From positions 1 through 64,000 of IMG/VR virus record IMGVR_UViG_3300033144_003327: a DNA stretch of 64,000 nt, one strand, 5' to 3'. The position numbers were made by a program, and so were the translations under genes. The notes beneath the pieces are model-generated. The model saw only the letters and a list, made by a program, of their open reading frames with translations. It ran no database searches and had not been told where the DNA came from. Numbering within the stretch: position 1 is the first letter of the stretch; the number at the start of each line of letters is the position of its first letter. This document shows, in pieces, positions 10,174-44,386 of the stretch. Source of the DNA: a virus.

Positions 10174-10895
10174 ATCAGACAGGAAGGGATATAGACCGAG
10201 CAGTCGTCGTGTACAGTGGCGGCATGGATTCATTCACTGTTCTCCATGAGGCTATAGCACGACACGAAGAAGTCTTCGCAGTGTCGTTCAACTATGGACA
10301 ACGCCACAGCAAGGAACTCTCATTTGCTCACGTGGTTTGTGCGATGTATGACATCCCTCATCGTGTCGTTGACTTGCGAAACGTGAGTGGTTTGATTCAA
10401 GGCTCCTCGTTGACGTCTGACATTGACGTACCCGAAGGTCACTACAGTGAAGAGAATATGAAGGCGACGGTCGTTCCAAATAGGAACATGATTATGATCA
10501 GTTTGGCTGTCGGGTACGCCGTCAGCAAGGACTGCCGTAGTGTCTACGTCGGTGCCCACGCCGGTGATCATGCGATCTACCCGGACTGTCGTAAGGAATT
10601 CTTTGAGGCCTTAAACATGGCGACAGTCATCGCCAACTACACACCAGTCAGCATCTGCACACCATTCATTGATCTTTCCAAAGGCGACATACTAGCGACC
10701 GGAAAGGGACTAGGCCTTGAGGCGAAAGATTATCAACTGACTTGGACTTGCTACAACGGACGCGAACAAGCCTGCGGCAAGTGTGGCGCCTGCGTTGAAC
10801 GGTTGGAGGCGTTTGCTCAATGCGGATGGGACGATCCTCTAGATTACGAAGACCGAGAGTTCTGGGTCGACGCGGTGTCGAGAGCAGGGGTATGA
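10170..10895 (+). CDS. queC: 7-cyano-7-deazaguanine synthase QueC
   Basis: [11 protein letters not shown]-loop, C-terminal CxxC...CxxC zinc site ([11 protein letters not shown]). Confidence 0.85.
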
Positions 10896-11455
10896 GCGGA
10901 TCTCGTAACGGTAGGATGGGGGCGTGCCAATACCTCCTGCGGGCAATCGGTGAAGATCCAAAACGGGGTGGACTTGTTGAGACTCCGCAGCGGTTTGAAA
11001 AAGCGTGGGCCTTCTGGACAAAAGGATACGATGAGGACCCCGAAAAGATAATGAAAGTATTTGAAGACGGAGGAGAAAGTTATGACCAGATGGTCTTGGT
11101 TAGAAATATTCCGGTGTATAGTCATTGTGAGCATCATCTTGCTGCTATCTTTGGCGTGGCTCATGTGGGGTATATCCCAGACGGAAGGATCGTCGGACTC
11201 TCAAAACTCAACAGAGTTGTGGATTGCTTTTCACGCAGACTCCAAGTCCAAGAGCGACTCACTGATCAAATTGCAGGATCCATTCATGATGTACTGTCGC
11301 CAAGAGGAGTTGCTGTCCAACTGGTCTGTCGGCACTTGTGCATGGAAAGCCGTGGAGTCTGTCAACAAGGACACGAAACAGTCACCACCGCCCTTAGAGG
11401 ATTGATGAAGACAGATGAAGGAGCCAAGCGAGAATTCTTAGACCAAGTGAGGTAG
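10892..11455 (+). CDS. folE: GTP cyclohydrolase I FolE
   Basis: [31 protein letters not shown] motifs; start at ATG 10892 overlapping queC stop (ATGA). Confidence 0.8.
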
Positions 11456-11460
11456 AGGCG

Positions 11461-11862
11461 ATGCATAGAGTCATCAGTTGTCTGAAAGAGTTCCACGAGG
11501 CTTTTGGGTTGCCGACGGCAGATGAACCTGGCCTGGTGACGATAGAACGTCGGCACTTGAGGATGAAGCTACTTGAAGACGCCTACCACGAGTACAGGTA
11601 CGCAGCAAGAGCGGATAACTTGCTCAAGGTTGCCGAGTCACTCGCAGACATGGCATACGCTATCGGCGGCGCGGCCCTCGAGTACGGTATACCTATTGAC
11701 AAGATCTTTCTTGAGGTGCATAAGAGCAACATGAGCAAATTGATTGACGGACAACCAAACCTAAGAGAAGACGGGAAGGTGCTGAAGGTTCCCGGATATC
11801 ATAAACCAGACGTCGCGGCTGTGTTGTGCGACGAATTGTATGGAGAAGAAGATGCCCGGTGA
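11461..11862 (+). CDS. MazG-like nucleotide pyrophosphohydrolase
   Basis: 133 aa, EFHEAFGLP...E..E pattern of phage MazG/HisE-like all-alpha NTP-PPase. Confidence 0.6.
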   Translation: MHRVISCLKEFHEAFGLPTADEPGLVTIERRHLRMKLLEDAYHEYRYAARADNLLKVAESLADMAYAIGGAALEYGIPIDKIFLEVHKSNMSKLIDGQPNLREDGKVLKVPGYHKPDVAAVLCDELYGEEDAR

Positions 11863-12430
11863 TGATAAAGACGAGTTCGTGGACCACGTATGGATTACGA
11901 CGTTCACGGACAGGAAGTTCCACCTCCACGGTGATGACCCAGACGACATTGACATGGTTGATATCGCCCACGCCCTGAGTAACCAATGCAGGTTCACAGG
12001 TCACGTGAGACGATTCTATTCAGTGGCGCAGCATTCATGTCTGGTGGCCGACATTGTCCGATTGACGGGCGGCACGTTTGAAGAGGGCCGCTCTGCTCTG
12101 TTGCATGACGCGAGTGAAGCCTACCTTAGCGACTTGGCCGCACCTTTTAAGCGACAGGTCACAGGATACAAAGAAGTTGAACTGAAAATAGAGGCACGTA
12201 TTGAGGCCAAGTATAACCTTGTAGGGAAGACTGATGTCGTCAAGAAAGCTGACTGGCTCGCCTTGTTTGTTGAAGCTGAGAATCTTATCAACGCTGATCC
12301 TACACAGTGGGTCGGCTGGGATGAACACGGTGAAGAAGCCCTGGCACTACGGATAGAAATCATTGCTCAGTTGCCGTATTCAGCAGAGAATCAATTCCTA
12401 GACTACGCCAAGGAATTAGGTATCATATAA
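11840..12430 (+). CDS. HD-domain phosphohydrolase (YfbR-like 5'-deoxynucleotidase)
   Basis: VAQHS ... LLHDASEAYLSDL HD signature. Confidence 0.6.
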   Translation: MEKKMPGDDKDEFVDHVWITTFTDRKFHLHGDDPDDIDMVDIAHALSNQCRFTGHVRRFYSVAQHSCLVADIVRLTGGTFEEGRSALLHDASEAYLSDLAAPFKRQVTGYKEVELKIEARIEAKYNLVGKTDVVKKADWLALFVEAENLINADPTQWVGWDEHGEEALALRIEIIAQLPYSAENQFLDYAKELGII

Positions 12431-13122
12431 TGAGTGCACTCAAAGACAGCGTTGACAAAATTGTCACGACATACTTCACAGCGATTACGCGCAAGCCGTT
12501 CACGTATAAAGGGCAGTCTTATTTCCCTCAAGACGTTCGCGTATCGCCAGGCGTGTTTCGTGGGTATACTTGTCCTACGAATTGTGGTGGGTGTTGTCAT
12601 CGGTTCAGCCTTGACTACCTGCCTATTGAGCCTCGTCCTCCAGGAAACGATAGATTCAGTACGCGATTGGTTGAGTTCAACGGTAAAGAATTTGAAATCT
12701 ATTCTGATACGCAACAAGATCATGACGACCATCACTGCATCAATGTCAACAAAAAAGGTGATGGTCCGCAGGTCGTAGATCCAAAAGTGGGTCTCGGTCG
12801 GTGCCAAATACACGGACACCATCCGTTCACTTGCGACTTTGAGCTGTTAAGATTTTCGCACACTGCTAAACCTGAACGACCAAACTATATCAATCAACGA
12901 TTGTACGGACGCGGCTGGGCCATGCTTCGGGTAGATGGTGAGCGCGGTGCCAAATGTGAAATGATCACAGGTGACCCAACCTGGAGAGCCGATACTCAGA
13001 GAAGAATTGGTAGGTTGATGCACTGGGCAGACTTTTTTGGACTGGATCATTGCCTGCTAGAAATCATCGGTTGGGTGGCGACTGGTCCCCATACTGAACC
13101 ACTATTTATCAAGAACACATGA
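12430..13122 (+). CDS. Cys-cluster protein, CxxxCxxCC (YkgJ/UPF0153-like) - unassigned member of deazaguanine cluster
   Basis: [14 protein letters not shown] then [20 protein letters not shown]; located between HD hydrolase and queF. Confidence 0.35.
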
Positions 13123-13133
13123 AGGAGAATGAA

Positions 13134-13679
13134 ATGAACGACCAAACAAAGGGCCTGAAGGCTCTTGGATCAGGAGAAACGAACTATGAATACGAAGGCG
13201 CGAATGCTGATCTACTCGAAAAGTTCGTTTCCCCGTTCTGGGCGGCACCAAGGGAAGGTGACGACGATAATGACGAGCATCATATCGTTCGCAATCCAGT
13301 CGGAGCGGCCGGTAGTGTGCATATTGAAATCCCGGAGTTTACTTCGCTATGTCCGCTCACTGGTCAACCTGACTTCGCTACCATTATCATTGACTACCTT
13401 CCCCGTGAATGGTGCGTGGAATCTAAGTCTCTCAAACTGTATATTGGTTCGTTTCGTAATTCAGGGGAGTTCCATGAGAGCTGTACCTGTCGAATCATCA
13501 ACGATCTTGTGGCACTGCTAGATCCCTACAAGATCCAGGTCCAGGGCAGGTTCACGCCACGCGGTGGCATTCCTTTTTGGCCTGACGCGCAATGGATACA
13601 CCCTGACGTCCACACAGGTGGGCAGCCAGCACCGAAGTCGCAGATTCTAACACCGGGGCGAAACATCTTGAAAGCGTGA
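13134..13679 (+). CDS. queF: NADPH-dependent 7-cyano-7-deazaguanine reductase QueF
   Basis: [17 protein letters not shown] and [18 protein letters not shown] QueF motifs; start at ATG 13134 seven nt after AAGGAG. Confidence 0.8.
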
Positions 13680-13716
13680 ATTTCGTCTCGCGATGATTAT
13701 CAAATTAAGGATCCTG

Positions 13717-13863
13717 ATGGTATTAAAACTGAAAGAGATATGGGGTGACTGGAAATGCAAACTCTTCCACAAGACCCATTGGAAATGGAACGTAAGCAAG
13801 GATCTTCCCTTTGGAGGTAACTATTGGGAATGTCAAAAATGCGGTAGAGGCTGGCGCGTATGA
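13717..13863 (+). CDS. small zinc-ribbon protein
   Basis: 48 aa, CKLFH...CQKCG; ATGA overlap with downstream dpdA-like gene. Confidence 0.25.
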   Translation: MVLKLKEIWGDWKCKLFHKTHWKWNVSKDLPFGGNYWECQKCGRGWRV

Positions 13864-14783
13864 ATCTTTTCTTCTCAGGTGTTGGCAAAGGAGTTATTGA
13901 AGTTGATGAAAGACTCGGATCTCCCAGATTTCGGTTGTTTTCCTGTCATGGAGCGTATTTCAAATATGCCCAAAAAACGGGACCACTGGTCTCATCAATC
14001 GACGATAATTTTGAAATCATGCTTGACTCCGGAGCCTTTACTGCTTGGACGAAAGGAGATGAGGTTACACTTGACCACCTTATCCGTGACTATTCAACCC
14101 TCATTGAAGACTTTGGATATCCCATCGAAAAGATATGGCTCATCAACCTTGACAAGATTCCTGGCGCGCCGGGTCGAACGGCTAGCGAGGAAGAGGTGGA
14201 AGAAGCAATTAAAATCAGCGATGAGAATTTTAACAGACTAGAGGAGGTGTTCGGTGCGAGAGTCGTCCCGGTTTTTCACCAAAATGAGAATGAAGCCCGG
14301 TTGGCGGTGGTCGCAGACATGGCTCAATATATTTGCATTTCTCCTAGGAACGATCTTGGGGAGCGCCATCGTCGTACATGGTCTCAAGAAGTCCACGCCA
14401 AACTCCCTCCAGGAATCAGAACCCACGGTCTCGCAACCACAGGTTTCCCGATGATGACGAAAGTGCCGTGGCACAGCGTAGATTCCGCGACCTGGATTAT
14501 GATCGCGGCGTATGGACACGTCTATTTCAATCGACGTCTGCAGACGATGAGTATTTCGGACGACAGCCCAAATATCCATGAAGCCGATAAACACTACATG
14601 AATATCATAGATGAACAGAAAGAAGTGATGGAAGGCCTGATGAAAAAGTGGGGATTCACACATGACGGTCTCCGCAGCGATTTTGTTGAGAGGGCGATAT
14701 GGAATAGACTAATGATGAGCGAGTTGTATCGCTCCGTGGGTGATATCCACGTACCAATGCAAGAGGGGTTATTTGAGCTATGA
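13860..14783 (+). CDS. dpdA: DpdA-like 7-deazaguanine DNA transglycosylase (TGT superfamily)
   Basis: LDSGAFTAW resembles TGT catalytic DSGGFQ motif, TIM-barrel-sized 307 aa, no C-terminal TGT zinc motif, sits directly after queF in preQ1 cluster. Confidence 0.55.
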   Translation: MNLFFSGVGKGVIEVDERLGSPRFRLFSCHGAYFKYAQKTGPLVSSIDDNFEIMLDSGAFTAWTKGDEVTLDHLIRDYSTLIEDFGYPIEKIWLINLDKIPGAPGRTASEEEVEEAIKISDENFNRLEEVFGARVVPVFHQNENEARLAVVADMAQYICISPRNDLGERHRRTWSQEVHAKLPPGIRTHGLATTGFPMMTKVPWHSVDSATWIMIAAYGHVYFNRRLQTMSISDDSPNIHEADKHYMNIIDEQKEVMEGLMKKWGFTHDGLRSDFVERAIWNRLMMSELYRSVGDIHVPMQEGLFEL

Positions 14784-20622: not shown

Positions 20623-21151
20623 CGGCCCGTGGTGGCGATGGTACTGGCCAAAAGAACCTGACCTAAGAAACCTGCCCTGCCCGAAATACACCTGGTACCC
20701 CGAAATTGCGAAAGCGTTCGGAATAGATTACATTAAGGCTATCGTGAAAGATGGCCTGTCAACCGATCCCGGCATCGTTCATATCAATCACGGATCAGGT
20801 CCGATGATGATGAACCTAGCGTACCTTTACGGCATCAGGAATGTGGTCCTGCTAGGCCACGATATGAAATTCGCCCCGGACTACAACGCAGCGAAAAGGG
20901 ATCCTGGATCATTTCCACGACACTATTTCGGTGAGTATCCGAAACCATTACAACATTGGCCTTCGGTCAAAGTAAAACCTGACGGAAAGCTAGAAGGTCT
21001 GATTGAGACGTACAGGAAAATGCCGTTCGATGAGCTCGGTATGACAGTCACGAATTGTACGCCTGAATCAGCATTAGAATTCAATTACATGGATTGGAAG
21101 GAGATGGCAGATGGAATTAGGACCGCATCGTCCGGTACACGGGGAGCCTGA
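20378..21151 (+). CDS. MptE-like / DUF115 (Maf-like) protein, paralog 2
   Basis: GVLVATGPSL, YFGEYPKPL; aligns along length with paralog 1. Confidence 0.5.
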   Translation: MENTEVADLLSKAPPKNQPYPDHPISPIFKGYTGVLVATGPSLNRAQLDLLRELHTEDLVKVFSINNVYQVYPWTDVHLSCDGPWWRWYWPKEPDLRNLPCPKYTWYPEIAKAFGIDYIKAIVKDGLSTDPGIVHINHGSGPMMMNLAYLYGIRNVVLLGHDMKFAPDYNAAKRDPGSFPRHYFGEYPKPLQHWPSVKVKPDGKLEGLIETYRKMPFDELGMTVTNCTPESALEFNYMDWKEMADGIRTASSGTRGA

Positions 21152-21800
21152 TTACAAGTGGTATCACCACAAGTTAAAGGGAGTAGATCGTGAACGATGG
21201 ATGCTACCTCAAGACGAAGGGATGTATCAAAACTCCTTTGGTTTCGTTCTGGACAACATTGAAAGAACCGTTAAACACATCCCCGAAGACGACAGACAAT
21301 TGTGCGTTCAAGCCGGCGGGTGTTTCGGACTCTGGCCCTACCTTTACTCACTCTATTTTGAGGAGGTCGTTACGTACGAGCCCATGCCTGTAAATCTCAA
21401 ATGCCTGAAAAGAAATATCAGCGACAGGAAAAACATCACTGCATTCAGAAATGCTCTCAGTGATAAAGAAGAAATGGTTGACATGACCTATTCCAAACCG
21501 AATTTGAACAGCTACGGCGCGCACCACACGAAGTCTGAGGGTAGAATACAGGCATGGCCATTGGACGAATTCTATTGGGAACGGCTCGATCATCTTCAGT
21601 TGGACGTAGAGGGTGACGAGTTGAAAGTCTTGAAAGGTGCGGAACGGGTCATCGGAGAGTTCACTCCCTTAATCACTCTTGAGGTTAGGAACCTGCCGCA
21701 CATGACGATCCCTGCCGCCCGAGCTGAAACATGGTTGAAAAAGACATTCGGGTACAGGGAAATTGATAGGTTTGCCGGAGATAGGTTGTACTCAGTATGA
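21111..21800 (+). CDS. FkbM-family SAM-dependent methyltransferase
   Basis: VQAGGCFG SAM-binding motif and LQLDVEGDELKVLKGAE FkbM signature. Confidence 0.65.
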   Translation: MELGPHRPVHGEPDYKWYHHKLKGVDRERWMLPQDEGMYQNSFGFVLDNIERTVKHIPEDDRQLCVQAGGCFGLWPYLYSLYFEEVVTYEPMPVNLKCLKRNISDRKNITAFRNALSDKEEMVDMTYSKPNLNSYGAHHTKSEGRIQAWPLDEFYWERLDHLQLDVEGDELKVLKGAERVIGEFTPLITLEVRNLPHMTIPAARAETWLKKTFGYREIDRFAGDRLYSV

Positions 21801-22486
21801 AAGAATCAATGACGAAAGAACAATGGCATAAAACATACGGATGGCAGGAACACAACCATACCTATTGGCCTGCCGATTTCAAGTTCTTATGGCCTAATGG
21901 CGATAAGCTACTCCACGGTGACATACCGACTTTGGCACATTTGGACGAATTTGTGTTTCCTCTCGTACCTGAGAAGCGTGTCGCAGTCCAAGCGGGTGGA
22001 GCTATGGGCATGTGGGCCAAGAGAATGGCCCAAGAATTCGGTGTCGTGTATACGTTTGAGCCAAATCCGCAGAGCTTCTATTGCTGTAGTTTCAATTGCC
22101 CGGAGGAAAATGTCGTGCCTTTCCATGCTGCCTTGGGAGCTGAGCCGGCTCTAATCAAAGTGAGCACGCCGCACCGTGAGCAGAATTACGGGGCCAACCG
22201 TGTCACTGGCGCGGGGCACGTTCCCGTCATGACTATCGACAGTCTAGAGCTTGAGCATTGCGACCTCCTGATGTTAGACATCGAGGGATACGAATTGTTC
22301 GCCTTGCAAGGTGCGTTGGAGACGATTAAGAGATGCAAACCTGTCATCGTTCTGGAGGACAAAGGATGCTCCACAGAGTTCGGATATCAAAAAGGGCGCG
22401 TTGAAAGATTCCTGCAGAGAAAGGCGAAGTACCGAACCCATTCACGATTCCATGGCGATAGGGATGTGATACTATGTCCAGAATGA
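21797..22486 (+). CDS. FkbM-family SAM-dependent methyltransferase (paralog)
   Basis: VQAGGAMG and LLMLDIEGYELFALQGA. Confidence 0.65.
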   Translation: MKESMTKEQWHKTYGWQEHNHTYWPADFKFLWPNGDKLLHGDIPTLAHLDEFVFPLVPEKRVAVQAGGAMGMWAKRMAQEFGVVYTFEPNPQSFYCCSFNCPEENVVPFHAALGAEPALIKVSTPHREQNYGANRVTGAGHVPVMTIDSLELEHCDLLMLDIEGYELFALQGALETIKRCKPVIVLEDKGCSTEFGYQKGRVERFLQRKAKYRTHSRFHGDRDVILCPE

Positions 22487-29783: not shown

Positions 29784-30398
29784 ATGGAGATGGAAATGAG
29801 GACCGAAGAAGAAGAACAGGAAGGATTTTGGGGATACATTATATTGATCGTGATATTCTTGATATTTGCGATACCTGCGTTCGCGACTACGCCAAAGAAG
29901 AACCCAGAGGTGGTTGTTGACGTCGAACAGGATCAGCACCAACGGCAAGAGCAGGATCAGCAGCAAGACCAATCGCAATCACAGGTCACTGACTTGAGTC
30001 AGGCCAATGCGCAGAGCGTGACGTTTACGTCGCCGGACGACATCACCGTCAGGAATACGCCGTCCATTGCGCCACCGTCGGTGTACCCAACGGTGACGTG
30101 TTACACAGGAGTCTCTGGTGGGATATCGGTGGCAGGCTTTGGTGGATCCCTGGGTAAAGGCAAGATAGATCCCGCCTGCGTGATGCGTGAAGAGATACGA
30201 CTCGCCAGTGGTTTAGGCATGATGACCCAGGCGCGGAAGCTATTCTGCAATCGGCCGCACATCATCGAGGCGTTCGGTTCTGTAGAGGCTTGCCTGGACG
30301 ACGGGTTCAGCGTCAAACGTGTACCAGACAGTTGGACGACGGAAGAAGCTGACGAACGATGCGAACGGAAAGAAGAGGCATGTAAGGCATTCAAATGA
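29784..30398 (+). CDS. membrane-anchored protein with Gln-rich linker and Cys-containing C-terminal domain
   Basis: acidic N-term, TM helix YIILIVIFLIFAIPAFA, QDQHQRQEQDQQQDQSQSQ linker, 6 Cys in C-domain. Confidence 0.3.
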   Translation: MEMEMRTEEEEQEGFWGYIILIVIFLIFAIPAFATTPKKNPEVVVDVEQDQHQRQEQDQQQDQSQSQVTDLSQANAQSVTFTSPDDITVRNTPSIAPPSVYPTVTCYTGVSGGISVAGFGGSLGKGKIDPACVMREEIRLASGLGMMTQARKLFCNRPHIIEAFGSVEACLDDGFSVKRVPDSWTTEEADERCERKEEACKAFK

Positions 30399-30832
30399 GT
30401 GAATCCAACCTCTGGAATCGTCTCCGTACCAATATGGTAGGCAAGTATTGGGCGGAGGCGACGCGCCATGAAGACAAACTACAGCGGGGTATCGCCGACG
30501 TATCGTTCTGCCAAAACGGCGCTGGAGGTTGGATGGAGTTGAAGCATGTCAGTGACTGGCCTGCACGGCGTACGACAACCGTCAAGATTCCTCATTACTC
30601 GATTGACCAGAAAGAATTCTTGACGAAGAAAGGCAAGGCCATGGGCAATACTTGGCTCTTCATCCAAATAGGCAGCGACTTCGTGCTGTATGACCACATT
30701 GGTGCGCAGCACGTTGGCGAGTTAACCAAAGAACAGATGGTAGGGAACGTTTACTGCTATGCCTACTGGAGAGGGAAATTAGATTACAGTCAGTTCGCTC
30801 GGGCACTTGTGATCGGGGCTCAGAGTAGATGA
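30395..30832 (+). CDS. PD-(D/E)xK-fold nuclease-like protein
   Basis: IADVSF ... GWMELKH = D...(E)xK restriction-endonuclease-like core. Confidence 0.35.
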   Translation: MSESNLWNRLRTNMVGKYWAEATRHEDKLQRGIADVSFCQNGAGGWMELKHVSDWPARRTTTVKIPHYSIDQKEFLTKKGKAMGNTWLFIQIGSDFVLYDHIGAQHVGELTKEQMVGNVYCYAYWRGKLDYSQFARALVIGAQSR

Positions 30833-31022
30833 GTCATCAACGACTTGAAAAGCTGAAGCGTGACGTCTTCGATCAGATCGATGAGTTTGAGGACAAGACG
30901 GGTCTGTGTGTGGAGAAGATAACGACGACACATGACTGGACGTTGGTCCCCGACCCCGCCCGCAGGAACAGAGAAATACAAGTGAAACGATTGAAGACGA
31001 TCACGATTGAGGTGAATGAGAT

Positions 31023-31478
31023 ATGAACATTGAAGAAAAGATAATAGAATCGAATCGCATTGAAGGGATCAATCGCCCACCTAGAAAGGCTGAGATTGAA
31101 GAGTTCAAACGATTCATAAGGCTAGACGTGATTACGATAGAGGAGTTAGAAAGGTTTGTCGGCGTCTACCAGCCTGGGGCAAAACTCCGCAGTAGGCCAG
31201 GCGACGATTGTCGTGTCGGATCACATCACCCGATAGGCGGCGGCCCTGAGCTCCTACTTGTGTTGACTGAATTATTGACTGAAATTGAAAATAAAACGAT
31301 TCATCCTTTTCATGCTCACATCACCTACGAAACGATTCATCCGTTTATGGACTGCAACGGCAGGTCGGGGCGGATGTTGTGGTACTGGATGATGGCGCAG
31401 CGGTGGGGCGCGGTGTCAACTGACATCGGATTTCTCCATCGGTTCTATTATCAAACATTACATGCGATCCAGAAATGA
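31023..31478 (+). CDS. Fic/Doc-family protein with variant Fic motif
   Basis: HPFMDCNGRSGR vs canonical HPFx(D/E)GNGRxxR (G to C at one position). Confidence 0.55.
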   Translation: MNIEEKIIESNRIEGINRPPRKAEIEEFKRFIRLDVITIEELERFVGVYQPGAKLRSRPGDDCRVGSHHPIGGGPELLLVLTELLTEIENKTIHPFHAHITYETIHPFMDCNGRSGRMLWYWMMAQRWGAVSTDIGFLHRFYYQTLHAIQK

Positions 31479-31771
31479 GAGGCGTCGTTCAAATTATCCG
31501 ATGCAAAGACCATCTGTCAATCGGTGAGCACAATGCGGACGTGGGCAAACAACACGTCATCGCCGTTTGCGACGACGGGACGCTGTGGCACGGCATGATG
31601 TCTTACGACTACAAAGATGAGTTCACTACAACGGAGAAGGATTTAATAGTACAATGGACCCAACTAAACACACCACCCGACGGCGATCACTTGCCAAAGG
31701 ATACGCGGGGTAGGTGGGACAAAATTGAGGAACAGATTCGTGAAGAAGATGATTCAAATATCACTGACTGA
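31475..31771 (+). CDS. hypothetical protein
   Basis: 98-aa ORF coupled to fic. Confidence 0.25.
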   Translation: MRGVVQIIRCKDHLSIGEHNADVGKQHVIAVCDDGTLWHGMMSYDYKDEFTTTEKDLIVQWTQLNTPPDGDHLPKDTRGRWDKIEEQIREEDDSNITD

Positions 31772-32096
31772 CGCTGAACGTCTGTTTGCGGCGCGCCGTA
31801 CTGGAGACGAGAACCAACAAGCGGTCGCGGCGTCTGCAGGATTCCACCAGACGGCAATCTCCAAAATGGAGAAAGGAGAGATCCCTGTGAATCCGAGATT
31901 GATAAAGAGATTTCGTGATGACGATGATCTTCCCGACTACATCTATTTGTCGTTAGTGCGGCGCAGGTATCAATTCAAATTGGCTGAGGCGGCTGTGCAA
32001 TGCGGCATTGCCACCCACCGTTTGGGTGACATGGAACGTGGCCGCGTGGATCCTGATCCAGCATACGTGTCGTGGTTGGAATCCTTAATGAAATGA
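31725..32096 (+). CDS. XRE-family helix-turn-helix transcriptional regulator (two HTH-like segments)
   Basis: QQAVAASAGFHQTAISKMEKGE and FKLAEAAVQCGIATHRLGDMERGR. Confidence 0.5.
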   Translation: MRNRFVKKMIQISLTDAERLFAARRTGDENQQAVAASAGFHQTAISKMEKGEIPVNPRLIKRFRDDDDLPDYIYLSLVRRRYQFKLAEAAVQCGIATHRLGDMERGRVDPDPAYVSWLESLMK

Positions 32097-32117
32097 TTTT
32101 CAAGTTATGTTAAGAAA

Positions 32118-32159
32118 CCATTGTAACGATGAGTGAGGCTGTTACTATTATATATGAAG
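32118..32159 (+). promoter_or_regulatory. class-1 conserved promoter-like element (copy 4)
   Basis: CCATTGTAACGATGAGTGAGGCTGTTACTATTATATATGAAG then CACACAGAAAGGAAGAG RBS. Confidence 0.45.
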
Positions 32160-32541
32160 TTAACACACACAGAAAGGAAGAGATAAAATGGACAAATTAG
32201 ACATGGCATATTTCTTGGCACGTATTTCGTTCCGCAAAGGAAAGAACACGTTGCACGGCGAAACTGTCGCGGAGTGGACTAGCTATTACTTGACATTCAC
32301 TCACGCAGAATTGAAAAGTGAGGTGGCTTCTTATGGCTGCTAAAATGGAATTACGAAAGTTAAACAAAATGTCGTTCGTCGAGTACGAATGTGGCGCCTA
32401 CTACTACGATGAGCGAGAAGCTCTCGTTTGTGCGCCGATGAACGCTGACGACACTGTTGCATATGAGGATGAAATCATCGTCGCCGACTTTGATATACCT
32501 TTGTCTGCAGAGATTTTGAATCGAATAGAGGCGTTACTGTC

Positions 32542-32853
32542 ATGAACGACAATCCAGCAGATTTCAACAACGACCACACGGCACATTGTGATCGTTGCAA
32601 TTCCCGCCAAATGGGAACGGAGTTCTACTGCAACGACGCCATGGGCATGGCAACGCCTGTCTTGTGGGTTTGTCATCGTTGTGAGAACCCGCCGGCACTG
32701 GTGCGCGTCTATCGCGAGATTGTTCGTCGCGCCACCAACGCTTTCAACAAGGCGAAGTATTACGCGACGACGACGCCAGAGTATCGTGCCAAACGTCGCG
32801 CGCGGATGGAGCAAGCCCGTGGACGGATTGCCGCGCGGAGGGCTGCCCAATGA
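32542..32853 (+). CDS. zinc-ribbon protein with basic C-terminal tail
   Basis: HCDRCN ... CHRCEN. Confidence 0.25.
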   Translation: MNDNPADFNNDHTAHCDRCNSRQMGTEFYCNDAMGMATPVLWVCHRCENPPALVRVYREIVRRATNAFNKAKYYATTTPEYRAKRRARMEQARGRIAARRAAQ

Positions 32854-33272
32854 AGATTGGCATAACAGGAACACGTCGCGGCGCATCTACGGCACAGCTG
32901 GCGGCGTTGGAGGCTTGGTTCACTGACTGTCGTGCCGACGAGTTGCACCACGGTGACTGCCGCGGTGTTGATGAGGTCGTTGCCAAAATGGCTCGCCGCC
33001 ATAAGGTGCGCATCGTGTCGCATCCACCCAACATCGGTACATCGAGGGCCTACGTGCCCAGCGATGTCTATTTCAAGGTCTTGCCCTACATTGAACGCAA
33101 CCATGTTATCGTTGATATGACAGATGGTCTGATTGTCGTTCCTAACAGTCCGGCCGAACTTATACGAAGTGGTACTTGGGCGACTTGTCGCTACGCTAGG
33201 TCCAAAGGAAAACGGATCTGGATCATTTATCCAGATGGAACCTGGGAATACGAGGGCGATCATGAAACATAG
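32850..33272 (+). CDS. SLOG/DUF2493-like Rossmann-fold protein
   Basis: MKIGITGTRRG ... HHGDCRGVDEVV resembles DprA/SLOG-type phage nucleotide-binding domain. Confidence 0.35.
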   Translation: MKIGITGTRRGASTAQLAALEAWFTDCRADELHHGDCRGVDEVVAKMARRHKVRIVSHPPNIGTSRAYVPSDVYFKVLPYIERNHVIVDMTDGLIVVPNSPAELIRSGTWATCRYARSKGKRIWIIYPDGTWEYEGDHET

Positions 33273-33660
33273 AGCGGTGAAATTTGTGGTTACGGCGGTG
33301 CTGCTAGGGTCTCTAACGATTCAGGCAGATCCAATCAAGACTTGGTTCTGGGATGCTCCGACTGAGTACGAGAACGGCTCATTGATCCCAGGAGGCGACC
33401 TGATTAACTTCAGGTTGTACTGTGGGATGATAGAGGGCGGTCCGTATCCAGCGAGCAAGATATTTGAGATGCAGGTGGCGCCGTCTATAGAAGACATGGA
33501 CTTCGTCGTCGCAGGTCTTCCAGGGATGTATTACTGCGTATCGACTGTGGAGTCGCTCGCGCACATGACGATTTCTGGAGACTCTAATGAGGTCAATTTT
33601 ACTGTAGCGCCGGGCCAATTGGGATTTGTGCCGAAGCCACCGGTGCTGCACATCCAGTAA
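33262..33660 (+). CDS. secreted protein with signal peptide
   Basis: MKHRAVKFVVTAVLLGSLTIQA signal peptide; ATG 33262 in frame of ORF 33133..33660. Confidence 0.3.
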   Translation: MKHRAVKFVVTAVLLGSLTIQADPIKTWFWDAPTEYENGSLIPGGDLINFRLYCGMIEGGPYPASKIFEMQVAPSIEDMDFVVAGLPGMYYCVSTVESLAHMTISGDSNEVNFTVAPGQLGFVPKPPVLHIQ

Positions 33661-33696
33661 GGAAAGGATCAGGTTGTACTTAAAGGAGAAAGGAAG

Positions 33697-34185
33697 ATGT
33701 CTACTGAAAGGAAAGGAATGGGAACGTTCGGAGTCTTGACACTGTTGTTTATCGGTGGCTTGGCTTGGATGACGATTGAAAACGCTGTGTCGGAGTTTAG
33801 ATTTCCAGGTGCGGTGGTCGAGAGCGGCATCCACGCCAGCGACGACTGTTACGAACAGGACTCTGCTAACTGGCGCGTCGGCTTGTTTGGCGTCAATCAA
33901 GAGTCGATCCGCGACACTGACTGCGAGAAAAGAGAGGCTGCGCGATTAGCATCCGAGGCTGGTATGCCTGAGGTTTCAAAACGGATCATCTGCGGTTTGG
34001 CCGGCTCCATTGCGACGTTTGGCGACGCGGAAAGGTGCATGGCCCAGGTCGGTAACGCCACGACGGTTATCGTTGAGGTTGCCGACCGCGGCGTCTACTG
34101 CGACAAGCGATCCAAGAAGTGGTATAAACGGCTCACATTCAGGGTCAAGCACAATTACCGGAAGTGTATGCGAGGTGAGGTATGA
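33697..34185 (+). CDS. membrane-anchored Cys-containing protein
   Basis: N-terminal TM FGVLTLLFIGGLAWMTI; RBS AAAGGAGAAAGGAAGATG. Confidence 0.3.
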   Translation: MSTERKGMGTFGVLTLLFIGGLAWMTIENAVSEFRFPGAVVESGIHASDDCYEQDSANWRVGLFGVNQESIRDTDCEKREAARLASEAGMPEVSKRIICGLAGSIATFGDAERCMAQVGNATTVIVEVADRGVYCDKRSKKWYKRLTFRVKHNYRKCMRGEV

Positions 34186-34445
34186 AACTCTCCGGAACGG
34201 CGGCAGGATTTTGGATCGCCGTCACAATTATCGTGGTTGTGGGCATCGGGTTTGCTCCAGGTTATGTAAAACCAGAGCGATACGCAGAGAGATGCGTAGA
34301 GTCGCATTCGGTGATTGTGGATGGTACGTGGGTAGGGTGCGTCGGAGACAGCCAGACAGCAGGCAATCTGTGGATCCCGCCAAATGGCCCTGCCCCGATG
34401 GCTGACATAAAAGAACTGGATGATTCTTGGATGGACGGATCATGA
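34182..34445 (+). CDS. small membrane protein
   Basis: TM AAGFWIAVTIIVVVGIGF. Confidence 0.25.
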   Translation: MKLSGTAAGFWIAVTIIVVVGIGFAPGYVKPERYAERCVESHSVIVDGTWVGCVGDSQTAGNLWIPPNGPAPMADIKELDDSWMDGS

Positions 34446-34693
34446 AGACGATCGATGAACAACTGACGGAACTGAAAGAGTGGAGCGGCCAGGGATATTA
34501 CGCGGCGGCGGAGGAACAGATGGCTGGCGAGGCGGCTGCGACGATTGAATTGTTGCTGAAGGAAATAGAGCGCCTGCGTGGTGCAAGGAAGGATGATTGC
34601 GTTGACTTTTTTAGGTGGTGGTGGAATCAACCGGGAAATGATACGGAAGCTGGCTATGACACATGGTTAGCACTAAAGCAGGAGGAATCATGA
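34442..34693 (+). CDS. small RLRG/QEES paralog 1
   Basis: IERLRGARKD, ends ALKQEES with embedded GGAGGA RBS for next gene. Confidence 0.4.
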   Translation: MKTIDEQLTELKEWSGQGYYAAAEEQMAGEAAATIELLLKEIERLRGARKDDCVDFFRWWWNQPGNDTEAGYDTWLALKQEES

Positions 34694-34980
34694 GTAAAGA
34701 ATTTATGAGGGCTGACCGGGACAGGTGGCAGGCTATGGCAAATGATTTGAAAACCCAGAACAAGCGCCTGCGTGGTGAGCGGGACTTGTTGTGTCAAGTG
34801 CTTGAGCGTGGCGGGATTGACTCATCAGCAATTCTTGCCAGTCAAGACGATGGGGGGTTATGGCTTGACGAGAACAAGCGCCTGCGTGGTTTGCTGGATA
34901 GAACCTACGAGTTAGCCAACCACAACAGCGTGGATTGCTATAAGTGCGCAGAGGTAGCGGCACTGCAGGAGGAATCATGA
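34690..34980 (+). CDS. small RLRG/QEES paralog 2 (two RLRG motifs)
   Basis: KRLRGERDLL and KRLRGLLDRT; ends ALQEES; ATGA-coupled. Confidence 0.4.
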   Translation: MSKEFMRADRDRWQAMANDLKTQNKRLRGERDLLCQVLERGGIDSSAILASQDDGGLWLDENKRLRGLLDRTYELANHNSVDCYKCAEVAALQEES

Positions 34981-35207
34981 GTGATAAATATATAGCTCAT
35001 AAAGATTGCGGTATTCACGCTACATATGAGCAGAACCCCTGTCCTCACTGTAAACATGAGCGCCAGCAACAGGAAATCCTATGCCTGCGTGGTGAGGTCG
35101 AACTCTATAAGGCCGTGTATGACGCTGCCCACAAGATCGTCAAGGGCGAACAGTGGAGTCAAGTGCCATTGAAAGAGGCTGTGGATGCTTTGCAGGAGGA
35201 ATCATGA
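34977..35207 (+). CDS. small RLRG/QEES paralog 3
   Basis: CPHCKHE zinc knuckle, LCLRGEVEL, ends ALQEES. Confidence 0.4.
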   Translation: MSDKYIAHKDCGIHATYEQNPCPHCKHERQQQEILCLRGEVELYKAVYDAAHKIVKGEQWSQVPLKEAVDALQEES

Positions 35208-35449
35208 GTAAATTACAGAATGAGGGCATCATTAACTGGCTCAAAGCCACGGAGGATGATGCTATGGGTATGGAGTCTGGCGACAGGGCAATGGCGTATG
35301 CTGCCCGCCAACTGATTCTGGACTCACTTGAGGAAATAGAGCGCCTGCGTGGTGATCTTGCAGATGCGGAGCAGCGATTTCAGTTTATGTCCGATCAGGT
35401 AGAGGCCAAATGCAAAATCATTGAGGCACTAAAGCGGGAGGAATCATAA
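35204..35449 (+). CDS. small RLRG/QEES paralog 4
   Basis: IERLRGDLADAE, ends ALKREES. Confidence 0.4.
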   Translation: MSKLQNEGIINWLKATEDDAMGMESGDRAMAYAARQLILDSLEEIERLRGDLADAEQRFQFMSDQVEAKCKIIEALKREES

Positions 35450-35631
35450 TGTGGCGGATATTCAAGTTGCGGGTTTGCTTAATTGGTTGGTGGTATCACC
35501 GTGTGTGGGTCGGAAATTGCCTATATAAGCAGGAATGGATTGAGTTATATGAGGATATGCCAAACCCGAAAGAGGCATATGAGGAAGGCTGGTGCCGTGA
35601 ATAGCAAAGCACTAAAGCAGGAGGAATCATA

Positions 35632-35925
35632 ATGTGTGATGGACCGATGACATGGGATGAACTGGCGCACGAACATACGCTACAGAAAAAGGAAATAGTG
35701 CGCCTGCGTGGTGTCATCGCTGCGTGGTATGCCTACTGGCCTGAGCCGTGGGGTGAAGGCAGGGACGGTTTTGAAATGCAGGAGTTTGGCGAGAAGCATG
35801 GTATCCTAATTGCGGAAGAAAAGACTACGCCATGTGGTGAGGGGTGCAATTGCACTGAGTTTTTTGGTGACAACGAAACAGTGACTTGTTACCGACTCAA
35901 GCCAGAATTTGTGGAAGGTGCATGA
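35632..35925 (+). CDS. small RLRG paralog 5
   Basis: preceded by GCACTAAAGCAGGAGGAATCATAATG junction; IVRLRGVIAAW. Confidence 0.4.
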   Translation: MCDGPMTWDELAHEHTLQKKEIVRLRGVIAAWYAYWPEPWGEGRDGFEMQEFGEKHGILIAEEKTTPCGEGCNCTEFFGDNETVTCYRLKPEFVEGA

Positions 35926-36085
35926 AGAAGACTGATTTGGAAATGGATGTGGAGAAGAAATGGCCTAGGGTCATGTTGCTCGTATGTTTACATGGCAAGG
36001 CGAAGGTTTACGCGGCGCTTGACGCAATGAAATCGCAGGCGCTGGCCAATGGTTTACGCAAGAAAGTAGATAGGATGGTGGTGAA

Positions 36086-36310
36086 ATGAAAGCAAAATGG
36101 ATAGACCCAGAACAGCAGAAGCCCAAGGTCAAGGTACGGTTGCCACCGTGCTCAGCTAAGAGAACAACGACCTATTGGCGTGATCAACACGGGGACAATA
36201 TGTGCGCGAAGAGTGCCATCGTCAATATAGACGGCAAGGATTACTGTCATCAACACGGCTCTGGCATTGCTCTCAGGTATTTGGTGGCGGGTACGTTGCC
36301 GAAAACGTAA
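36086..36310 (+). CDS. small zinc-ribbon protein
   Basis: CSAKR...C..., CHQHG. Confidence 0.3.
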   Translation: MKAKWIDPEQQKPKVKVRLPPCSAKRTTTYWRDQHGDNMCAKSAIVNIDGKDYCHQHGSGIALRYLVAGTLPKT

Positions 36311-37435: not shown

Positions 37436-38029
37436 ATGGAAGCTCAAGAAGAACTGTTATCTGTCTCCGATCCGCAGGAGCCGGGCTTTAGGTGGACCCT
37501 AAAGAAGAAGAGGTTTGTTTCTAACTTCGTAAGGAATAACGGAAACGGCGCCAAGGCTGCTGTTGATGCGGGTTACACTGATCCGTCAGCGACAGGCCGT
37601 CTGCTTCAGCAAACGCTGGTTCGTCAGGCCATACATGACGAGCTCCGTGCCTGTCTACAAAAAGAGGGCGAAAATTCTGAGACAATAATCGCGAGATGGG
37701 CCAATATGGCTCAGGCCAATTTGGCTGACTATTTCAAAATGGATCAGGAGGGAGAATTGACGTTGGTGGACCTGACTCTCCTGACAAAAGATCAACAACT
37801 CAGGCTCAAGAAGATCACTGCTACGAGAAACCAGTACGGTCAGAACATCACTGTTGAGTTGCACGATGTCTTGAAAGCGAATGACCGATTGGCGGAGATT
37901 CACAATCTGTTGAAAGCTGAGCAAGGCTTCCTACCTCCTGATCAAACTGCCGCCGAAATACGCGACGCGATCAAGAAGATGGATGCTGTAGACGGGATAG
38001 AACGTCCCGCTGACGTCACTCTTCAATAG
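37436..38029 (+). CDS. terS: terminase small subunit (Terminase_2/P27-like)
   Basis: LKKKRFVSNFVRNNGNGAKAAVDAGYTDPSATGRLLQQ matches Terminase_2 N-terminal HTH pattern (LtpKQ..F..eYl..gNataAa..AGYs..tA). Confidence 0.7.
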   Translation: MEAQEELLSVSDPQEPGFRWTLKKKRFVSNFVRNNGNGAKAAVDAGYTDPSATGRLLQQTLVRQAIHDELRACLQKEGENSETIIARWANMAQANLADYFKMDQEGELTLVDLTLLTKDQQLRLKKITATRNQYGQNITVELHDVLKANDRLAEIHNLLKAEQGFLPPDQTAAEIRDAIKKMDAVDGIERPADVTLQ

Positions 38030-38040
38030 CCTCGCATTAT

Positions 38041-38620
38041 GTTAGATTACATAATACGCCTGAACTCCCTAGTGATTTAACATAACGTCTTAACATAATC
38101 TCGTTCATCAATTTGAGAGAAAAAGCGCTCCGCGTTCTCTTTCCCACGTTCGTGAAAAATACGCTCCGCGTTCTCTTTCTACAAAAACCGCTCCGCGTTC
38201 TCTTTCATATTCTCGTTGAGAGAGAGTCATTGGGATTACATAATGTCTTAACATAATCCGACTTAACATAATGTCTTAACATAATCCGATTGAGAGAGAA
38301 TCAGACTCAGTCTCATCATCATGATGTCTCACGATTTAACATAATGTCTCAACGAGAGAGGGCCTGTGGATAACTTATGCACAACTGTGGATAACTTTTG
38401 ATTTAACATAATCCTCAAACGAGAGCCAGAAGGACTCTTAACATAATGTCTTAACATAATCCCAGAAGTCTGAGAGATCATTATGTTTAATCAATGAGTC
38501 ATTTAACATAATGTCTTAACATAATCCTGAAACGAGTCCCAGACTCTCTTCGATCATGATCAGATAGAGAATGGTGGCGCACCCTCCCTCCTCCGTACCC
38601 GGCTTAGGTTTTACATAATG
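38041..38620. repeat. iteron array with two DnaA boxes (putative replication origin)
   Basis: ~13 copies of TTAACATAATGTC/TTAACATAATCC in 5 clusters; 3 copies of 18-bp CGCTCCGCGTTCTCTTTC (38125, 38162, 38189); two perfect DnaA boxes TGTGGATAA (=TTATCCACA) at 38366-38374 and 38386-38394; 10-bp IR TTACATAATG/CATTATGTAA near 38607. Confidence 0.55.
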
Positions 38621-38684
38621 ACGAACCTTTTAGAGGAACGACATTATGTAAAGTGTGATCAGCAACCCGGCCAGCGCGGCCCGT

Positions 38685-38987
38685 TTACTTAACAAAACGT
38701 GTCGCGATAATTTGTGCCGCTGCGCCAATTTCGTAATTGCTTATTTTGCTGTTGCGTCGAATCACTTCGCCGTCGTAAATTAACTGCATGGCCAATTCCA
38801 ACGTTGCACTATGCTGCTCCGCATATTCAACATTTTCAAAAAGGTCCGGCAAACACCCACCGACGTCGGCGGAGTATTCTTCGACTACTAATTCCGTAAG
38901 TGACAATTCCATTTTAAATATTCCTTTCGTGTAGTGTGAATATGCATAGTAACACAATTCCAACTCACTACAAGCGGTTTTTAACAT
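38685..38987 (-). CDS. hypothetical protein (minus strand, next to origin-like repeats)
   Basis: 100-aa ORF in otherwise non-coding stretch; one of very few credible minus-strand genes. Confidence 0.25.
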   Translation of the reverse strand: MLKTACSELELCYYAYSHYTKGIFKMELSLTELVVEEYSADVGGCLPDLFENVEYAEQHSATLELAMQLIYDGEVIRRNSKISNYEIGAAAQIIATRFVK

Positions 38988-39166
38988 AACGCCAAAATGA
39001 TTTGATTTAACATAATCCTGAAACGACTCCCAGATTGACTTAACATAATTGGACGGATCTCTCGCATTTTCTCGGGTAGACCTATACCTTGGTATTGGGA
39101 AGATTTGCGCGCCGTCAGCGTGGAATGAGTAATAATTTGCTCACAATTGCAGTGATATGCTATAAT

Positions 39167-39235
39167 GTGCCCTAGGACACAGTATGTCTCACTCAATCAT
39201 ATACAATGTGATTACACACTTAGGAAAGGAAAACG
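39167..39235 (+). promoter_or_regulatory. class-2 intergenic element (copy 2), preceded by consensus TATAAT at 39161
   Basis: GTGCCCTAGGACAC then degenerate hairpin, ACACTTAGGAAAGGAAAACGAAATG. Confidence 0.45.
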
Positions 39236-42961: not shown

Positions 42962-44386
42962 ATGTCACTAAGACTTGACCACGAAACAGAATTAACCAGT
43001 CGCTGGACCCCTATGCGGTATCATGCGGAGCAATCCCGTCTCTGCAGAAGCCAGGCCAGGTTCAAAGTCGTACCCGCCGGACGCCGTAGTGGCAAGACAG
43101 AGAGAGCCAAACGTCAAGTCGTGAAAGCGGCCTTGAGTTCCACAGGACCGAGTCCAGCTTATTTTTGCGCGGCACCAGTCAGAGATCAAGCGAAGAGAAT
43201 CTATTGGGATGATCTAAAACTCCTGGTAGGTCAGCGATACATGATGCGGCGCCCGAGTGAGAGCGAGCTCACAATTTGGACAGTAAACGGTGCGAAGATT
43301 GTCGTGATTGGAATGGACAGGCCGGAGAGGATCGAGGGAACACCTTGGGACGGTGGGATTCTAGATGAGTACGGAAACATGAAAGAGACGGCGTGGATGG
43401 AGAACGTACGGCCAGCATTGGCGGACCGGATGGGGTGGTGCTGGTTGATCGGAGTGCCCGAGGGTAGGAACCACTATTACGAGAGATATCGGTTCGCTCA
43501 GGGACCAGGGAATGTCAAGAACGGAGGTGAGTGGGACGCGTTTACTTGGTTCAGTTCTGATATCCTGACGCCGGAGGAGATAGCTGCGGCCCGCGCGGAC
43601 CTCGACCTACTAACCTACCAGCAGGAATACGAGGCGTCGTTCATTAACTTCACGGGTCAGTGTTATTACCCGTTTGATGAAAAAGTCCACTGCACAAACC
43701 TGAAACAGAATTACAATCCGAATAGGGACCTGATCATCTGTTTCGACTTCAACGTCGATCCCGGCGTGGCAGTCATCTGTCAGGAAATGGCATACCCGCG
43801 CATCATCCTACCCATCAAAGGCCTGAAGGTAGACAACAGGACGATGTTCCGCGACAGTGTCATCGACGTGGCACCCGCGGGCACGGCAGCGATTGGTGAA
43901 GTCCATATTCCAAGAAATAGCAATACCCGGGCCGTATGCCGTAAACTAATTCACGATTGGGCCGAGCACCAAGGAAGAATTTTGATTTATGGTGACGCGA
44001 CGGGCGGAGGTAGGAGTACCACGTCGGACCAACCAGGTGAGAATGATTGGGATATCGTCAAGAATGAACTCTATGGATTCTTCGGAGCAACACGAGTGTT
44101 GATGCACGTACCAGGCAAGAACCCGACAGAGCGATCACGAGTGAACTCGATGAATACGAGATTAAGGACGGGCGATGATACGATACGTCTGATGGTAGAT
44201 CCTGCAGAATGCCCCAGCCTGGTACATGACCTTGAGGGCGTGAGACTCTTGGAAGGCGGAAGCGGCGAGATTGATAAGAAGGCAGACCCAAAATTGACCC
44301 ACTTGACCGACGCTCTCGGATATTACATCGTGGCAGAGTTCCCGGTCAGGCAGGAAGTGTTCAGCATCAACGAATTGAGGGCATGA
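42962..44386 (+). CDS. terL: terminase large subunit
   Basis: Walker A VVPAGRRSGKTE near N-terminus, nuclease-domain acidic residues downstream; 474 aa. Confidence 0.85.
   Translation: MSLRLDHETELTSRWTPMRYHAEQSRLCRSQARFKVVPAGRRSGKTERAKRQVVKAALSSTGPSPAYFCAAPVRDQAKRIYWDDLKLLVGQRYMMRRPSESELTIWTVNGAKIVVIGMDRPERIEGTPWDGGILDEYGNMKETAWMENVRPALADRMGWCWLIGVPEGRNHYYERYRFAQGPGNVKNGGEWDAFTWFSSDILTPEEIAAARADLDLLTYQQEYEASFINFTGQCYYPFDEKVHCTNLKQNYNPNRDLIICFDFNVDPGVAVICQEMAYPRIILPIKGLKVDNRTMFRDSVIDVAPAGTAAIGEVHIPRNSNTRAVCRKLIHDWAEHQGRILIYGDATGGGRSTTSDQPGENDWDIVKNELYGFFGATRVLMHVPGKNPTERSRVNSMNTRLRTGDDTIRLMVDPAECPSLVHDLEGVRLLEGGSGEIDKKADPKLTHLTDALGYYIVAEFPVRQEVFSINELRA

Follow-up and report, generated by a model that had tools for sequence, protein, structure and literature searches.

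The closest described counterparts of the element treated here are the boundary sequences of phage genomes, known from the modular theory of Susskind and Botstein and from the gene boundaries of HK620 and lambdoid phages (Clark et al. 2001; summarised in PMC3029335). They are patches of identity at the edges of unrelated modules, proposed to let general recombination enzymes swap these modules, and they cannot be found at most mosaic boundaries (PMC3029335). Here we describe an array of six small genes (g1 to g6) in a viral DNA of 64,000 nucleotides (positions 1 to 64,000 of the IMG/VR record IMGVR_UViG_3300033144_003327; this whole stretch is called the window below), in which one short repeat, the core, recurs in frame inside genes and another, the junction, recurs at gene boundaries. 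Core and junction probably represent short-homology recombination joints ('linker' or 'boundary' sequences), the core preserving reading frame and helix register and the junction being a cassette for translational coupling. The junction islands, lying at gene boundaries, agree exactly with the boundary-sequence model. However, linkers of a second class occur within the genes themselves, in frame, as part of an uninterrupted alpha-helix and six times in one tandem array, and the phage is a non-lambdoid, apparently lytic environmental siphovirus. Because linkers are so rarely visible at mosaic boundaries (PMC3029335), this clean, multi-copy case is unusual.

The Ea22/Ead proteins (IPR025153) are small early-region proteins in which a short N-part varies, a coiled coil forms the centre and the C-terminal domains are mosaic and interchangeable (PMC10834534). 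The array proteins likewise have long central helices in AlphaFold models, N- and C-modules that recombine freely among relatives, and high diversity under an architecture that is retained. However, they reach only about half the length (76-97 aa against 182 aa), the array is not in the exo-xis region of a lambdoid temperate phage (no integrase, exo-xis or lysogeny genes were seen), and the Ead_Ea22 profile matched neither g1-g6 (Pfam, E<=1) nor ten relatives (E<=0.1), NCBIfam also giving nothing. The glycine-rich motifs of the gp38 adhesins of T-even phages (Tetart et al. 1996/1998; Trojet et al. 2011, PMC3157838) are the closest precedent for conserved in-frame motifs between variable segments at which chimeras form, but they make up the structural core of one adhesin domain and their exchange between phages has been observed, whereas the array motif is a helix segment of tandem paralogues and is identical down to its synonymous sites in a single genome. 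Cluster K mycobacteriophages have start-associated sequences, with the 13-bp consensus GGGATAGGAGCCC, 3-7 bp upstream of starts (PMC3203893). Like these, the array junction is an asymmetric repeat with a Shine-Dalgarno (SD) core AGGAG shortly before ATG, sometimes with an upstream stop, in a non-structural part of the genome. The AGGAG core is nevertheless all that GCAGGAGGAATCAT(G/A)A shares with GGGATAGGAGCCC, and the start-associated sequences are spread over half the genome before unrelated gene families, while the junction is limited to one array and reaches into the coding tail of a shared peptide.

Cores, junctions and their codons

According to the open reading frames (ORFs) of the window and their translations, the array consists of six translationally coupled small genes:

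34442..34693, + strand: g1, 83 aa, with one core; a diverged g4-type N-module, a linker and the C-module RKDDCVDFFRWWWNQPGNDTEAGYDTWL with an ALKQEES tail
34690..34980, + strand: g2, 96 aa, with two in-frame cores (KRLRG ... KRLRG) 114 nt apart and a QEES end
34977..35207, + strand: g3, 76 aa, with a Cys/His zinc-ribbon-like N-module, a core that reads C-L-R-G and a QEES end
35204..35449, + strand: g4, 81 aa, with the N-module IINWLKATEDDAMGMESGDRAM, a linker, a C-module of its own and a REES end
35449..35604, + strand: g5, 51 aa, Trp-rich and without a core; an unrelated cassette between 28-nt direct repeats of the junction
35632..35925, + strand: g6, 97 aa, with a short unique N-part, a linker and a conserved Cys-rich C-module (WPEPW...DGFEMQEFGEKHGI...)

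The original prediction started the array at 34427, but the TTG there is a less likely start of g1 than the ATG at 34442, which overlaps the stop of the upstream gene. Its description of five small paralogs was overstated, as the genes are mosaics of mostly unrelated N- and C-modules joined at a shared segment, and a sixth, unrelated gene (g5, called as a gene also on the independent contig L003) stands among them. The most similar pair of proteins, g1 and g4, share 36% amino-acid identity and are weakly homologous over most of their length. A C-terminal QEES, said to end every gene, is present in g1, g2 and g3; g4 ends in REES, g5 and g6 end in neither, and a fifth ALKQEES is an out-of-frame orphan.

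The core GCCTGCGTGGT has exactly six copies in 1.3 kb (at 34572, 34766, 34880, 35083, 35343 and 35702, all on the + strand), and the rest of the 64 kb has none; 0.04 copies are expected by chance and 0 of 100 shuffles attain six, which confirms the reported invariant repeat. The longer 14-mer GCGCCTGCGTGGTG is exact in four of the cores, as had been noted. All six share one codon phase, xGC CTG CGT GGT, so that the L-R-G codons are identical throughout; the peptide, previously given as always R-L-R-G, is so in five cores and C-L-R-G (TGC) in that of g3. The islands of identity around the cores, and one shorter copy, are as follows:

34559..34583, + strand: core island 1 (g1), AGGAAATAGAGCGCCTGCGTGGTG, encoding K-E-I-E-R-L-R-G; 24/24 nt the same as g4 and 24/25 as g6
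34757..34777, + strand: core island 2 (g2, first copy), AGAACAAGCGCCTGCGTGGTG
34871..34890, + strand: core island 3 (g2, second copy), AGAACAAGCGCCTGCGTGGT
35083..35094, + strand: core island 4 (g3), GCCTGCGTGGTG, encoding (C)-L-R-G
35331..35354, + strand: core island 5 (g4), GGAAATAGAGCGCCTGCGTGGTG, included in the codon test
35689..35713, + strand: core island 6 (g6), AGGAAATAGTGCGCCTGCGTGGTG
35720..35728, + strand: seventh copy of CTGCGTGGT, 16 nt past core 6, out of frame and encoding A-A-W-Y (family D5 of the self-comparison)

Core and junction are thus conserved as stated before, but over longer islands (24-25 and 20 nt for cores, 19-28 nt for junctions) than first noted. Those of g1, g4 and g6 span 24-25 nt with the form GA[AG]GAAATAG[AT]GCGCCTGCGTGGTG, and the two cores of g2 form a 20-nt repeat that is 100% identical between 34757-34776 and 34871-34890. 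The left flank of the g3 core is 76% identical over 42 nt to that of the g6 core (family D4). The extents of identity are nested and heterogeneous (11, 12, 14, 20 and 24-25 nt): the left ends are nested and all six cores share a sharp right edge after GGT(G), and the spacing from core to core is irregular (114-359 bp). The seventh CTGCGTGGT, of which about 0.005 chance copies are expected in the array and which orthologues replace by AKWY or VKWY in other codons, could be a footprint of slippage or microhomology. Moreover, the reverse complement of AGCGCCTGCG, a sequence present in four cores, recurs exactly as CGCAGGCGCT at 36034-36043, in the next gene and 110 nt downstream of the array. By chance the window should hold about 0.3 such 10-mers on each strand, and CGCAGGCGCT could either pair with the cores in a polycistronic mRNA or be there by chance.

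The conservation extends to synonymous sites. Codon usage in the window is nearly flat (CTG makes up 20% of Leu, CGT 20% and CGC 18% of Arg, GGT 31% of Gly), and the probability of one codon set at all six L-R-G sites is about 1e-10; the two other L-R-G sites in the window ORFs are written CTC CGT GGT and TTG CGA GGT. By these figures the refuting condition of the original prediction, that the 14-mer is just how codon usage writes R-L-R-G here, does not hold. As codon usage is flat, a constraint on the peptide is unable to freeze the third positions. Between g1 and g4, identical residues have the same codon in 13 of 13 cases inside two islands and in 5 of 13 outside, the nucleotide identity being 44/48 in the islands and 67/183 outside. 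The frozen codons include the rare ATA and CTA, and synonymous sites in the flanks are saturated. Identical codons inside and saturated ones outside indicate islands that are 'younger' than their genes, or constrained beyond them. In the self-comparison as a whole, islands of 19-28 nt with 95-100% identity stand against 37% in the aligned flanks. The invariance at codon level, on which the original prediction had insisted, is therefore genuine and calls for an explanation other than the peptide motif.

The second repeat, GCAGGAGGAATCATGAG, is present in three exact copies and two variants ending in ATAATG, which together mark five junctions, and all five matches (<=3 mismatches) are confined to 34678-35633 of the window. 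It contains the last codons (A-L-K-Q-E-E-S), a strong SD sequence AGGAGG 5 nt before ATG, and an overlapping stop and start. The islands share 17-28 nt of identity, reaching 9-10 nt upstream of the SD sequence and into the next gene:

34669..34698, + strand: junction g1/g2, AGCACTAAAGCAGGAGGAATCATGAGTAAA, with the ALKQEES tail, SD AGGAGG and an ATGA stop/start overlap
34964..34982, + strand: junction g2/g3, TGCAGGAGGAATCATGAGT
35191..35212, + strand: junction g3/g4, in which the A at 35194 is G in L003
35426..35453, + strand: junction g4/g5, type B, GCACTAAAGCGGGAGGAATCATAATGTG
35608..35636, + strand: orphan junction, an out-of-frame 'ALKQEES' remnant between g5 and g6, now only SD and start for g6

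On either side of the gene g5 stands a copy of the junction, the two forming a 28-nt direct repeat (35426-35453 and 35609-35636, 96% identical; family D2). The contig L003, 2005 nt long and from another sample, carries cores 3-6 and their junctions with merely two single-nucleotide polymorphisms (SNPs) against the window, and this independent reproduction excludes an assembly artefact. One of these SNPs (window 35194, position 371 of L003) turns the g3/g4 junction GCAGGAGG into GCGGGAGG, the state of the g4/g5 copy, which is suggestive of conversion between junction copies. Stop/start overlaps are also common in the wider surroundings: at 30395-36310 almost all small genes share an ATGA or similar overlap with the next, which suggests that a single long operon with translational coupling leads into the array.

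Helical modules and their exchange among relatives

The array proteins are predicted to be small, all-helical and modular, with an N-module and a C-module placed on one long helix. In the AlphaFold model of g1 (pLDDT 94.9) a helix at 4-61 is followed by a back-folding helix at 68-82, and in that of g4 (pLDDT 93.5) a helix at 3-18 is followed by a loop and a helix at 25-80. R-L-R-G lies within a long continuous helix in both, and the core should therefore be an in-register joint of a helix, with no flexible hinge, so that joining at this place would keep the helical register. A ubiquitin-like LRLRGG tail or a protease site can be ruled out as the meaning of the motif, which has a single Gly and lies within the predicted helix. 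Searches with the array proteins in Pfam, PHROGs, NCBIfam and PADLOC found no significant match, and neither the region nor g1 or g6 matched anything in GenBank phage DNA and protein searches. For g1, a profile search of the PDB and a fold search of BFVD gave nothing significant, and ten relatives hit merely sub-threshold generic coiled-coil families in Pfam (E<=0.1). At a guess, the array proteins may be host-directed accessory proteins.

Relatives were found by an exhaustive HMMER search with a profile of g1 and g4, which returned 55 small metagenomic proteins. Here the C-module of g1 (RKxDCVDFFRWWWNQPGTNxEQGYDxW) is placed behind more than 30 distinct N-parts, always after a helix segment like EIERLRA, RIAELEA or RIEQLEG. 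Conversely, the N-module of g4 (AIxNWLxATADDAMGMEPGDRxM) precedes about nine distinct C-parts; the similarity stops at EIERL, and the joins run through helix segments of the EIERL/RIAELE type. Orthologues of g6 are 55-77% identical from E-I-x-R-L-R-G/A to the C-terminus and have wholly different N-parts. In these alignments the switch point between N- and C-modules is always the E-I-x-R-L-R-G segment. Other searches had little to add: a word-indexed protein search returned nothing beyond g4 when g4 was the query, a match to g4 on the viral contig L002 was spurious, a scan of genome contigs with the g1 C-module revealed no prophage copy, and a metagenome scan with the g6 alignment gave one short, uninformative locus. 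An exact look-up placed g4, g5 and g6 on the source contig and L003 only and returned no record of g1 or g2. In MW202621, the phage whose TerL is nearest (56% identity), nothing comparable to the array is present.

We compared the DNA of g6 orthologues and other family members (loci L004-L018 and L024-L027). These phages write the motif peptide as CGC CTA CGT GCA, CGT CTG CGT GGA, CGG TTA CGT GGC or CGC CTG CAA GCC, and across phages the peptide is thus kept and the DNA of the core is not. The scan for the core that had been proposed as a check found none outside the array in the window, and the 14-mer in IMG/VR gave single background matches. Nucleotide homology of the window to L004 and L013 (75-78% identity) starts at 35692, the first base of the linker. 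These loci have islands with sequences of their own: L013 has a junction of 27-30 nt (AGAGCAGGAGAGTGATGATGAGTGACC) three times, L017 a 32-nt junction twice, and L025 a 24-nt in-frame repeat internal to one gene as well as another of 23 nt at the ends of two genes. Common to L004, L013 and L014 are islands of 19-28 nt, 92-100% identical, in non-orthologous genes (GCAGCCACAGAGCAGGAG, AAGCCAGAGTCGAGG and GAGATCGAGCGCCTGACTGCT), and the sole long homology within these three loci has 73-79% identity. In one case a natural breakpoint was found: L005 is 100% identical to L004 over 6413 nt and diverges inside a 24-nt repeated island (ACTCGCAGCCACAGAGCAGGAGGA; 5-28 and 509-532 in L004, 1-40 in L005). 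Breaks in several independent assemblies also fall in the roughly 600 bp that precede the g6 orthologue. At 285-638 of L004 there is, in addition, a 117-aa gene with an internal 'LAATEQEE' island of the junction type, followed by an in-frame small zinc-ribbon segment and a second acidic tail; from its sequence, two former array genes would seem to have been fused by read-through at a junction island.

Proposed recombination joints and the competing explanations

The islands are short stretches of high identity with non-homologous sequence on at least one side, and they coincide with the module switch points seen against other genomes, as boundary or linker sequences do. Of the mechanisms named in the original prediction a recombination hotspot is the one that the evidence favours. 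We infer that the islands arise and persist by recombination acting on them and not through a binding factor, and the pathway proposed here is inferred in the same way. The patches would recombine within one genome, between sister genomes or between co-infecting relatives, by unequal crossing-over, double-crossover cassette exchange, short-tract conversion or template switching. Exchange at a core would allow every N-module to be joined to every C-module with frame and helical register intact, and exchange at a junction would insert, delete or duplicate whole genes while the translational coupling of the next gene is kept. Under this proposal the patches stay identical because each new joint derives from an existing one; serial descent of the joints, short-tract conversion or selection on exchangeable cassettes may each keep that identity. 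Likely footprints in the array are the two in-frame cores of g2, the unrelated g5 flanked by junctions, and the orphan junction between g5 and g6; together with the conversion-like SNP of L003, the double core and the position of g5 are indirect signs, at the level of sequence, of recombination at the islands. The minimal efficient pairing segment is reported as 23-27 bp for Red-beta and 31-34 bp for RecA (PMC3945230), and islands of 20-28 nt are therefore close to the minimum of the former and under that of the latter.

Several observations speak against recombination joints. Islands of 11-14 nt, as in g3, are shorter than known efficient pairing lengths. No recombinant of the window phage was seen, the second contig being single and near-identical, and the conversion-like SNP in it is a single event. 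The breakpoint of L005 rests on just 17 nt of divergent sequence at a contig end. None of the 40 window ORFs scanned was recognised as a recombinase. Since a crossover within a patch does not by itself homogenise the patches, six perfect 11-mers would still need conversion, serial descent from one linker, or selection. Finally, the sharp right edge and the out-of-frame CTGCGTGGT at 35720 would also fit a sequence-specific recognition site.

Such a site, i.e. a core (and perhaps a junction) recognised on DNA or mRNA by a phage or host factor acting as a 'stoperator'-like repressor, a translational regulator, a small RNA with its target here, or a nuclease, would be selected at the nucleotide level and merely tolerated by the coding frame. 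Besides the shared right edge and the seventh 9-mer, whose expectation is so low, it would account for six perfect copies in one orientation, synonymous positions included, and for the downstream reverse complement CGCAGGCGCT; a precedent for conserved repeats that contain an SD sequence and have no known function is given by the start-associated sequences of Cluster K (PMC3203893). Nevertheless we consider it distinctly improbable, and a general protein-binding site or RNA motif, both suggested earlier, to be unlikely. Outside the array the core and its sub-k-mers are at background frequency on both strands of the 64-kb window; frame-independent, intergenic or genome-wide copies, by which a repeated binding site is known, were not found, and every full copy has the same codon phase and the same architectural position. 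The extent of identity varies from copy to copy (11 to 25 nt), and the orthologous and paralogous peptide copies of related phages differ at synonymous sites. In IMG/VR the 14-mer gives single background matches per contig, never clustered and none in an EIERLRG context, and scans for core plus junction, extended core and extended junction gave 0 matches each. Nor is there a match in Rfam at E<=1, a common fold among the six 71-nt core contexts (z-scores -1.05 to +1.08), an inverted repeat in the self-comparison, or an excess of promoter- and terminator-like sites at the array. An explanation by passive relics, in which recent tandem duplication was followed by very fast divergence of everything save a peptide-constrained helix segment and the SD and start, is unlikely too, if a little easier to imagine. 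The tandem layout and common architecture would follow from it, as would the weak homology of g1 and g4, and the translational role of the junction (SD AGGAGG, ATGA overlap) constrains part of that repeat. However, most flanking modules are unrelated and have separate homologues elsewhere; codons are identical in 13 of 13 cases inside islands against saturated synonymous sites outside; the junction islands exceed the SD by 9-10 nt upstream and enter the next gene; and islands are 92-100% identical between related phages against 73-79% for the conserved gene.

In-frame iterons are known from lambda gene O, and the repeats could by analogy belong to a replication origin, or else to a packaging site or to Chi-like sites protecting recombination. 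They are direct repeats in one orientation and stand about 1.5 kb upstream of a terS-like gene, but we hold this to be very improbable: the spacing of 114-359 bp is irregular and unlike that of iterons, there is no adjacent AT-rich block, the genome-wide over-representation and strand bias expected of Chi are lacking, and every copy is in frame at a module joint. Neither skew nor composition shows a feature or change at the array. That codon preference alone would write R-L-R-G as the 14-mer has practically no chance of being true; CGC and CTG rank among the more frequent codons of some related phages, but no support was found in the window, where the flat usage, the probability of about 1e-10 and the different codons of the other L-R-G sites refute it. 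A further alternative goes beyond recombination at short homologies and takes core and junction as dedicated 'adaptors' of a cassette-exchange system, the phage analogue of exon shuffling, with identity selected for exchangeability and possibly a sequence-specific phage factor involved. We give it a small chance, slightly under that of a recognition site. If true, the related phage community would keep a small vocabulary of exact in-frame adaptors, one set within a helix and the other at the SD and stop/start junction, with half-modules and genes acting as mobile cassettes, and the outcome would be a programmed diversification of small host-directed proteins and no by-product of general recombination.

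Genomic setting and implications

The window makes up most of an environmental, siphovirus-like phage genome of about 66 kb, in which almost all genes are on the + strand and whose TerL is 56% identical to that of an uncultured Manatee Spring phage. Genes for a helicase, a DNA polymerase, a clamp, 7-deazaguanine synthesis, glycosyltransferases and methyltransferases lie upstream of the array, and the terS-like gene and TerL lie downstream. The distance between the terS-like gene (37436-38029) and TerL (42962-44386) is about 5 kb with small ORFs between, which is unusual for a packaging module, and the stretch at 38000-39200 between them has lower GC content, negative GC skew and minus-strand ORFs. 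A set of queuosine/archaeosine-type 7-deazaguanine genes occupies 8302-14783, and its sequence suggests that the phage probably modifies G residues in its own DNA:

8302-9015: QueE-like
10170-10895: QueC-like
10820-11455: GTP cyclohydrolase
13119-13679: second cyclohydrolase-like
13860-14783: tRNA-guanine-transglycosylase/DpdA-like

At 2977-4504 and 21111-22486, pairs of adjacent genes code for family-8 glycosyltransferases and for paralogous methyltransferases, with a sialyltransferase-like gene and a further glycosyltransferase near those; they may serve the modification of DNA or of surface sugars.

It has been debated whether phage mosaicism arises through homologous recombination at linkers that are short and conserved or by random illegitimate joining followed by selection. 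The array shows linkers plainly and in many copies, where intragenic ones that respect frame and helix register alternate with gene-boundary ones that respect translational coupling, and several unrelated environmental phages have arrays built alike from other sequences. It therefore offers a concrete, testable system for gauging the share of short-homology recombination in the domain shuffling of phage accessory genes, and it defines a new, unannotated family of modular helical phage proteins.

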